DNA of 39,344 nt from positions 1 to 39,344 of IMG/VR virus record IMGVR_UViG_645058835_000004; one strand, 5' to 3'. The stretch comes from a virus. Taxonomy: Duplodnaviria; Heunggongvirae; Uroviricota; Caudoviricetes. Below, one piece after another: positions 35,073 to 36,029 of this stretch. A program made the translations under genes and the position numbers. How positions within the stretch are numbered: position 1 is the first letter of the stretch; each line of letters opens with the position of its first letter. The notes beneath the pieces were generated by a model, which was given only the letters and a program-made list of their open reading frames with translations, did not search any database and had not been told where the DNA came from.

Positions 35073-36029
35073 ATGTCAACACACAAAATCACATTTCGCC
35101 ATGTTGATGATGCAATGAAAACTGTAATCATGCAGAATCGTGGAGGGCAACAGGTCATTGACCGAATTTTGAAAGCTTATGGCTTCACTTCACGTCAAGC
35201 ATTCTGTAACCACTTAGGGATATCCCAAAGCACAATGGCGAACAGATATGCTCGTGATACCTTCCCTGCCGACTGGGTCATAATCTGCAGCATGGAAACT
35301 GGCGTGTCGGTTGAATGGTTGGCATTTGGTACCGATAACACAGTAGAGGCTGTCACACATAATACAGAACAGAACCACCATAAAGATGGTAAGGAGATTC
35401 ATTCTCTCACTTTAGACACAAAATCCCCAAATGAGAACAATACTCACCGAAAGAACGAGAGCCTCATTGAGGTTAATCAAGGAGGAAAAGCGGCAATCGA
35501 GCGAATAGTTATCGCCTATGGATTTAAGACAAGGCAAGCTCTAGCGGATCACATTGGTGTTTCAAAAAGCACATTAGCCAATCGTTACATGAGAGATACC
35601 TTTCCAGCTGATTGGATCATCCAGTGCGCACTTGAAACCGGAGCTTCATTAATGTGGCTAACAACCGGTAATGGTCCTGTCTTTGAAGACGCTAAGAGCG
35701 ATATTATTGCTATCACACGGAAAAAAGTTATAAATGGTATGTTGTTTGATACAAATTATCTCCCTTTTGATAAAACCATGTTACCCAGCAAGGTGAAAAA
35801 CCCCATATCTATAGTAGATGAAGGAAATGTATATCTTGCAGACAAAGCATTTGATGAAGTAACCGATGGAAAATGGTTAGTTGAAATCGAAGGAAAATTT
35901 AGTGTTAGAGATCTAACCAGAATTCCAATTGCAAAAGTAAAAGTATCTAATGAAAGTACAACTTTTGAATGTCTATTAGCGGATATTAATGTAATAGCAA
36001 AATGTTTTGGTATATATAAGGATATTTAA
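35073..36029 (+). CDS. cI: CI-type immunity repressor with tandemly duplicated N-terminal DNA-binding domain
   Basis: 318-aa ORF; two ~65-aa segments (aa ~23-88 and ~128-193) clearly homologous to each other, followed by a C-terminal domain. Confidence 0.8.
   Translation: MSTHKITFRHVDDAMKTVIMQNRGGQQVIDRILKAYGFTSRQAFCNHLGISQSTMANRYARDTFPADWVIICSMETGVSVEWLAFGTDNTVEAVTHNTEQNHHKDGKEIHSLTLDTKSPNENNTHRKNESLIEVNQGGKAAIERIVIAYGFKTRQALADHIGVSKSTLANRYMRDTFPADWIIQCALETGASLMWLTTGNGPVFEDAKSDIIAITRKKVINGMLFDTNYLPFDKTMLPSKVKNPISIVDEGNVYLADKAFDEVTDGKWLVEIEGKFSVRDLTRIPIAKVKVSNESTTFECLLADINVIAKCFGIYKDI

Follow-up and report, generated by a model that had tools for sequence, protein, structure and literature searches.

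A variant of the phage 186 CI repressor with two helix-turn-helix heads in an Escherichia coli P2/186-like prophage and in related prophages

The window analyzed here is the whole 39 kb stretch of DNA (39,344 nucleotides (nt); IMG/VR record IMGVR_UViG_645058835_000004) from an E. coli P2/186-like prophage. It carries an immunity repressor gene, cI, whose open reading frame (ORF; 35073-36029, plus strand) encodes 318 amino acids (aa) in the order first helix-turn-helix (HTH) head (N1), linker, second HTH head (N2) and C-terminal domain (CTD). A preliminary description of this DNA had noted a product of this length, longer than the CI protein of phage 186 at about 190 aa. The ORF is confirmed, and 186 CI has 192 aa (coding sequence of 579 nt). 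The preliminary description had also reported two mutually homologous segments near the N terminus and read them as two HTH modules per subunit, and both observations hold. In a BLASTP comparison of the two halves, aa 1-131 match aa 132-318 with 47% identity over 98 aa (E=6e-32). The 62-aa cores at aa 26-87 and aa 139-200 (nt 35148-35333 and 35487-35672) have 36 of 62 residues in common. Pfam detects Phage_CI_repr (PF07022) in two stretches of the protein (E=9.6e-58), the better of which lies in N2 (aa 140-203), and Phage_CI_C (PF16452) at aa 214-312 (E=6.7e-31). The same Pfam search gave no S24 peptidase match.

The structural model agrees with this domain order. An AlphaFold2 (AF2) model of the monomer, computed from a 73-sequence alignment, has a mean predicted local distance difference test score (pLDDT) of 81 and folds both heads confidently, with a disordered linker between them. 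N1 consists of five helices (residues 25-36, 41-48, 52-60, 66-76 and 80-85; pLDDT ~89-95). N2 likewise has five helices, within residues 137-198 (pLDDT 91-96), and linker residues 90-133 have a pLDDT of 32-35. The CTD is β-rich and was matched by Foldseek to chain A of the 186 CI structure (2fkd_A) with a template modeling (TM) score of 0.92, a root-mean-square deviation of 1.3 Å and 30% identity; LexA CTDs were found only as distant fold matches with 9-13% identity. The 186 CI sequence (PDB ID: 2FJR) aligns only to aa 141-318 (E=3.4e-31). The window protein is a 186-type CI with two intact HTH heads and a disordered tether of about 45 aa, followed by a wheel-type CTD. Since it departs from the canonical one-head architecture of ~190 aa, with two heads and 318 aa, we count it as a variant of the 186 CI family.

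Two start codons have been used for this gene. RefSeq/PGAP begins at ATG 35130 (WP_009008398.1), and most gene callers begin at ATG 35073 (protein P0001 of our set); both versions contain both heads. We favor 35073 because single-head repressor genes of the N2 type open with the same ATGTCAAC and have no internal Met ahead of the head.

The genes diverging from cI are an apl/cox-like gene and cII (Table 1). The gap between cI and the apl/cox-like gene on the opposite strand is 88 bp, and the layout agrees with the annotation of phage 186. The cII ORF as listed starts at TTG 34784, while the annotated coding sequence is 510 nt long, and the start of cII is probably ATG 34730. The Cox/Apl-like and CII/CP76 neighbors identify the region as a phage 186-type switch, in keeping with the earlier proposal of a 186-family CI. 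In the predicted lytic promoter pR, the -35 hexamer TTGACA (35079-35074) overlaps the cI ATG and is separated by a 17-nt spacer from the -10 hexamer TATTCT (35056-35051).

Table 1. Features of the cI locus, with positions in the window
Feature	Position	Strand	Basis or remark
cII, CP76 family	34221..34784	-	PF06892, E=3.6e-42
FR-like element TCCCAAAATGGAAC, apl/cII junction	34750..34763		-323; located where 186 FR lies
apl/cox-like gene, 73 aa	34763..34984	-	phrog_575, E=9.6e-32; divergent from cI
Candidate N1-type site O(-33), TCACAAATCGGA	35040..35051	+	12-bp direct repeat over predicted pR start
Predicted pR	35051..35079	-	Consensus scan 10/12; analogous in position to 186 pR
Candidate N1-type site O(-13), TCACAAAACGGA	35060..35071	+	12-bp direct repeat, between pR -35 and -10
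cI gene	35073..36029	+	Pfam PF07022 x2 + PF16452; alternative ATG 35130, 299 aa
Candidate N1-type site O(+16), TCACATTTCGCC	35089..35100	+	Inside first codons of long ORF
N1, first HTH head, aa 23-87, recognition helix SQSTMANRY	35139..35333	+	hmmsearch domain, AF2
Inter-head linker, aa 88-135	35334..35477	+	Hypervariable, predicted disordered
Candidate N2-type (186 'B-type'-like) palindromic operator, TCCCCAAATGAGAA	35424..35437		Linker-coding DNA, +352 from cI ATG
N2, second HTH head, aa 136-200, recognition helix SKSTLANRY	35478..35672	+	Pfam, 186 CI alignment, AF2
C-terminal oligomerization domain, 186 CI type, aa 211-318	35703..36026	+	PF16452, Foldseek

The two-head protein is not peculiar to this prophage. 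A 1.6 kb region with cI occurs at an identity of at least 99% in 28 complete E. coli genomes, representing different hosts, and also in IMG/VR contigs. An assembly artifact, which had been raised as a possible source of the repeat, does not explain this. In the protein set, which comprises the best 120 clusters at 90% identity, hmmsearch assigned two heads to all 45 clusters of 291-330 aa and one head to the 72 clusters of 186-210 aa, so that every one of the 45 long repressors has the repeat. The two-head clusters have sources that include E. coli, Klebsiella, Citrobacter, Enterobacter, Salmonella, Kosakonia and Edwardsiella. Full-length homologues are found in the Klebsiella phages ST11-OXA245phi3.1 and 4LV2017, where they are annotated simply as 'repressor protein CI'. 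The 186 CI family is well known, and its two-head members are already in public databases under generic names. Our searches of the available literature for a two-head 186-type CI found no description or analysis, and Nilsson et al. 2011 mention only longer linkers and CTDs (PMC3448106). The two-head design is an old and widespread type of repressor, apparently unstudied.

Several related loci differ in the number or completeness of their repressor genes. In the P2-like locus L131 (534-2424 of IMGVR_UViG_2554235297_000013), apl is followed by a single-head cI (191 aa, 875-1450) and then by a complete two-head cI (307 aa, 1501-2424) on the same strand. The tandem repressor genes are 50 bp apart, with no separate switch region for the second. 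The same tandem layout is present in L129, L130 and L143. The layout of L131 suggests that extra repressors are carried as protective cargo. In L005 (2501-3190; Dryocola sp. BD586) and L142 (1531-2244), two-head cI genes are truncated in the CTD to 229 and 237 aa. These are probably decayed prophage repressors that have kept both heads without the oligomerization domain.

The preliminary description had called the repeat an internal tandem duplication, and on this point we differ from it. The two heads are 58% identical in protein and their coding segments 57.5% identical in DNA, third codon positions agree at 19 of 62 sites, which is the random level, and synonymous sites between the heads are saturated. 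N1 is nearer to single-head repressors than to its own N2. On average, N1 domains are 71% identical to one another; against N2 domains the figure is 56%, and against single heads overall it is 57%. N2 domains and single heads share 70% identity. When the heads of the 45 two-head proteins were clustered by single linkage at 65%, the N1 domains fell into four clusters (34, 6, 2 and 3 members) and the N2 domains into one. A representative N1 of every cluster is 67-82% identical to some single-head repressor (up to 88% in the whole set) as against 54-64% to its own N2. This pattern of four N1 clusters, one N2 cluster and N1 domains nearer to single-head repressors argues that heads were fused or swapped onto a common N2-CTD chassis.

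The single-head relatives of each head can be identified among enterobacterial P2/186-like prophages. N1-type repressors, with 82-88% identity to N1, are P0107 (Salmonella, 208 aa), P0084, P0112 and P0072; they have in common with the two-head proteins an N-terminal extension, MSTxxxTxRH. N2-type repressors such as P0059 (198 aa) have heads up to 85-92% identical to N2. Each of these proteins has one head, whereas the window protein joins both, and its switch is composite as well. The apl-proximal half (ctattggcttgtgGTGAgccg..taatcGTGAc) is common to the N2-type single-head phages L015, L016, L030, L055 and L077, and apl too is shared with this type (L015/L016). The cI-proximal half (acTTCACAAAWCGGAGAATAGGATCACAAAACGG, then ATG...ATCACATTTCGCC) is common to the N1-type single-head phages L068 and L065. 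Over positions -45 to +35 the cI-proximal DNA is 70-71% identical to L068/L065 and about 50% identical to N2-type phages; for the apl-proximal half an ungapped comparison is uninformative because of indels. A two-head locus with another class of N1, L144, follows the same rule: its N1 and the head of L012 are 82% identical, and the proximal DNA of the two is 72% identical. The locus set is exclusive of 13 loci whose ORF start was mis-called ('x' class). Taken together, the sequence comparisons indicate an origin by head fusion or swapping between repressor lineages, or by a very old duplication, and not by a local duplication in this phage.

Selection on the domains was estimated from 30 distinct two-head genes as the ratio of nonsynonymous to synonymous polymorphism (pN/pS). 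The ratio is 0.12 for N1, 0.23 for N2, 0.65 for the CTD and 0.73 for the linker. N1 is the most constrained part of the protein, and both heads are maintained under purifying selection. In codons 1-22 of these genes pS is 0.37, compared with ~0.66 elsewhere. This low value fits a DNA-level function of the segment, where the pR -35 hexamer overlaps the ATG and a TCACA site lies at +16.

Three candidate operators of an N1 type lie at the switch and share the pattern TCACA-N3-CG (35040, 35060 and 35089). O(-33) and O(-13) are 20 bp apart, and the third site is 29 bp beyond O(-13). With at most two mismatches, O(-33) is present in all 33 distinct two-head loci of the window class, as well as in L065 and L068, which are single-head phages of the N1 type; in L140, whose ATG differs, its counterpart lies at -27. 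At +16, L065 has TCACAAATCGCC. A scan of the window for further copies of TCACAAAWCGGA and of the dyad GTGAC-N-TTCAC gave only chance-level matches outside the switch. The FR-like element was considered as a site for N2 and dropped, being conserved in every immunity class examined. Inside apl, ~140 bp upstream of the cI ATG, there is also GCTCAATTGTGA (34933-34944), whose reverse strand, TCACAATTGAGC, combines features of both site types. The corresponding place in 186 holds pL and weak CI contacts, and most related loci conserve this sequence together with apl.

A candidate operator of a second type is buried in cI itself, in the DNA that encodes the linker. The exact sequence CCCAAATGRGA occurs once in the window (35426-35436), compared with 0.08 expected occurrences, and no N2-type palindrome was found at the window pR. 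The core of the palindrome recurs in TCTCCCAATTGAGAGA, the central operator at pR of phage 186. Our definitions of A-type and B-type sites follow the 186 GenBank annotation and the sequences compared. In N2-type single-head phages, CCCAAATGGGA is located at -42 and CCCAAATGAGA at +16 of cI. The linker is otherwise hypervariable, and in most two-head genes it holds the motif 8-11 codons ahead of the GG with which N2 opens. Three features at the codon level point to a constraint on the motif DNA itself. The codon ahead of the motif encodes F, S, N, A or I, yet its third position is always C. The Pro codon of the motif is CCA in 15 of 16 haplotypes, whereas CCA usage in two-head genes is 30%. Replacements of E by G or V within the motif keep or improve the DNA palindrome.

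Among the sequences compared, presence of the motif tracks the Asn or Thr state of the N2 recognition helix. We scored the motif in two-head genes as present with zero or one mismatch to CCCAAWTGRGA. It was found in 24/25 two-head genes with helix SKST[LVM][AT]NRY (Asn at position 7) and in 0/15 with SKSTLATRY (Thr at position 7), counts that are uncorrected for phylogeny, with an Asn group that spans three N1/switch classes. Among single-head genes it was found in 7/7 with helix SKSTLANRY, at -42, in 0/9 with SKSTLATRY and in 0/5 with the N1-type helix SQSTMANRY.

Phage 186 is the closest described system. Its operators are two turns apart, its repressor forms a 14-mer wheel, and distal FL and FR sites loop to pR (PMC3675496). 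To judge by the title of Shearwin et al. 2002, a single 186 HTH reads two types of site (PMC3675496). The N2 and CTD part of the window protein aligns end to end with 186 CI (PDB ID: 2FJR, 2FKD; PF07022 + PF16452; E=3.4e-31), and the CTD superposes on the 14-mer structure 2FKD at the TM score given above. The switch layout is also alike, with cI diverging from apl-cII and pR abutting the cI start, and the candidate operators are 20 bp apart. The core CCCAATTGAG is common to the N2-type motif of the window and the central 186 pR operator, and the TCACA sites are reminiscent of the ATTCAC half-sites in FL and FR of 186. A LexA-boxed DinI/Tum-like gene in the window is a further likeness. The window CI differs in adding a complete N-terminal HTH head and the ~45-aa disordered linker, so that a 14-mer would display 28 heads in place of 14, if the wheel forms at all. 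It has two distinct recognition helices, whereas in 186 one HTH serves both site types, and its pR has other candidate operator sequences. The distal site of the window lies in inter-head linker DNA, whereas that of 186 lies at the junction of the N-terminal domain and the CTD; 186 FL is inside 186 cI, ~270-285 bp from the ATG. The P2 C repressor likewise serves immunity in this phage group, and its divergent cox-type gene and direct-repeat operators have counterparts in the window, the latter as candidate sites. It differs in family, being a small single-domain protein without a 186-type CTD. The window CI shows no match to P2 C, and its Pfam and PHROG matches were to the CI family only.

Of the architecture, distribution, ancient modular origin, purifying selection on both heads and co-variation, taken alone, we are highly confident. 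The explanation we prefer for them would begin with an N1 head and its pR-proximal operator DNA being placed ahead of a complete N2 + CTD repressor gene of another lineage. The acquired gene would still hold one operator of its own, now in linker-coding DNA. N1 may read the TCACA-N3-CG sites that cover pR and so set the immunity of the phage itself; it most likely binds them since it is the most constrained head, is swappable and travels with pR-proximal DNA. N2 would keep the specificity of its single-head relatives for CCCAAWTGRGA. The only copy of the palindrome lies inside cI, and the first pR site is ~385 bp away from it, so that a single oligomer could hold pR with N1 and this FL-like site with N2, giving a loop or autoregulation. 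The N2 heads could also repress incoming N2-type phages, which have the palindrome at their pR, and immunity between the groups would then be asymmetric. Induction is probably 186-like, through a LexA-controlled DinI/Tum-like protein. For this whole explanation, division of labor between the heads included, we see the chances as evenly balanced. The preliminary description had suggested that an extra head would affect operator use and immunity, which we judge likely. The sharper proposal is that one polypeptide divides two immunity specificities, with a swappable N1 for its own lytic promoter and a constant N2 for an operator in its own coding sequence (looping or autoregulation) and for silencing a second immunity group. 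We put this forward tentatively, and with distinctly less confidence.

Several observations weigh against the preferred explanation. Every assignment of a head to a site is suggested by sequence association, and N1 and the pR-proximal DNA are physically adjacent, so that they would be co-inherited even without functional coupling. The candidate N1-type sites are direct repeats without clear dyad symmetry. O(-13) is polymorphic, and the IMG/VR locus L084, whose CI is 100% identical by tblastn, has TCGCAAAACGGA there, a single-base change to TCGC. In the window the perfect motif is found 9 codons upstream of where it usually lies, and the sequence at the usual location is degenerate. Because the linker motif also codes for a semi-conserved P-[IN]-E arm, constraint on the protein could explain some of its conservation. 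The motif is missing from about one third of two-head genes and so is not essential to the two-head architecture, and the motif-helix counts carry the phylogenetic limit already stated. The promoter scan did not find pL, the FR-like element may be part of pE (-10 hexamer), and the start codon of cI is ambiguous.

A rival explanation is that only N1 matters for DNA binding in this phage. N2 would then be kept as part of the inherited N2-CTD chassis, for folding, for dimer or wheel geometry or as the target of an antirepressor, and the linker motif would be a coding-constrained relic. The lower pN/pS of N1, the lack of an N2-type palindrome at pR, the two-head genes that have no linker motif and the overlap of the motif with the P-[IN]-E peptide all fit this reading. 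Against it, N2 is clearly under purifying selection and has essentially the helix of N2-type single-head repressors (SKSTLANRYMRD), the third-position C is kept while the preceding codon changes its amino acid (F/S/N/A/I), the E-to-G and E-to-V replacements keep or improve the palindrome, and the motif follows the Asn or Thr state of N2 (24/25 vs 0/15). We consider it unlikely, if worth keeping in view. Less probable still is that the second head was selected mainly for broader superinfection immunity, one polypeptide repressing both the N1-type pR of its own phage and the pR of N2-type phages, with no role for the intragenic motif. N2-type single-head phages do have the palindrome at -42/+16 and a recognition helix identical to that of N2, N1 heads of four lineages have been exchanged on an N2 chassis that stays constant, in L131 a heteroimmune single-head cI is followed within one operon by an entire two-head cI, which suggests that repressors are carried as cargo, and the prophage is otherwise rich in defense genes. 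Broader immunity leaves the DNA-level conservation of the intragenic motif unexplained, however, and it is compatible with the preferred explanation rather than exclusive of it.

Two further alternatives concern the geometry at pR and the age of the repeat. The four heads of a dimer might occupy a four-half-site palindrome at pR, with the N2 pair on the central dyad and the tethered N1 heads outside. The window does contain GTGA(35008)-20-GTGA(35028)-N8-TCAC(35040)-20-TCAC(35060), symmetric about 35035.5, with the two-turn spacing known from 186, and a linker of ~45 aa could span 20 bp. The inner spacing varies, however, from N6 in L118 through N8 in the window and L003 to N9 in L004, L113 and L115, and the site on the outer right shows polymorphism. 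N2-type single-head phages have the left half (GTGA...GTGAC) without the right one, and N1-type single-head phages have the right half without the left one. Because each half is common to a different single-head lineage, the pR dyad looks like a recombination junction, and the left GTGA repeats may be Apl/Cox sites since they co-vary with apl type. We rejected the palindrome as the main model on its variable inner spacing and the mosaic origin of its halves, and think it very improbable. Virtually no chance is left to the view that a recent duplication or an assembly error, confined to this sequence, produced the repeat. Nothing except the unusual length favors it, and it is already refuted by the 28 independent complete genomes and the IMG/VR contigs that carry the region, by the same architecture in 45 diverse clusters and by copies that differ at 42% of nucleotides with random third positions.

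If the sharper proposal of two divided immunity specificities is true, such a repressor would create asymmetric immunity between phage groups and would offer a route to new immunity types at the level of domains. The CI protein of 186 is a model of cooperative gene control by a DNA-wrapping protein wheel. A common natural variant with doubled heads, two specificities and flexible tethers tests how far the geometry of this wheel can be stretched, and the two-head repressors are a ready-made system for how head swapping creates new immunity specificities. Prophages of E. coli, Klebsiella and Salmonella often carry them, and induced Klebsiella phages are among the examples. Because their only annotation is 'repressor protein CI', similarity of whole proteins may lead to wrong predictions of immunity groups.

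The prophage extends from ~3165 (gpD) to the integrase gene (38313-39344), which reaches the end of the window. The left flank (288-2620) carries host ybjM (PF11045) and a ybjL-type Asp-Al_Ex/TrkA_C permease gene. At 28298-28832 on the minus strand, a small ORF (phrog_698) is preceded by a perfect LexA box, CTGTAAATATAAACAG (28774-28789), and followed by a DinI-like ORF (phrog_189, E=4e-30), which covers only the C-terminal part of the profile. The arrangement resembles the LexA-controlled tum antirepressor operon of phage 186, and a LexA-boxed DinI/Tum-like gene suggests induction of the antirepressor type.

Other genes of the prophage resemble known or candidate defense systems. Two cargo genes lie directly 3′ of cI and before int in the lysogenic operon (36030-37885, plus strand). 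Their products are a 260-aa protein with a weak DUF3644 match and a 356-aa protein that matches the candidate defense family PDC-M11A (E=2e-130) and phrog_6345. Beyond these two, RefSeq also has a gene with an ASCH domain. The minus strand at 25464-28010, which separates the portal region from the replication genes, encodes a SieB-like superinfection exclusion protein (181 aa, PF14163, E=2e-22) and, adjoining it, a 525-aa protein that ends in a HEPN_LA2681 domain (E=2e-38). An AriA/AriB (PARIS-like) pair is located at 14916-17019 on the plus strand, among tail and baseplate genes of the opposite strand. AriA is an AAA_21/AAA_15 ATPase of 419 aa (PADLOC, E=1e-38), and AriB is a DUF4435 protein of 293 aa (E=3e-24).

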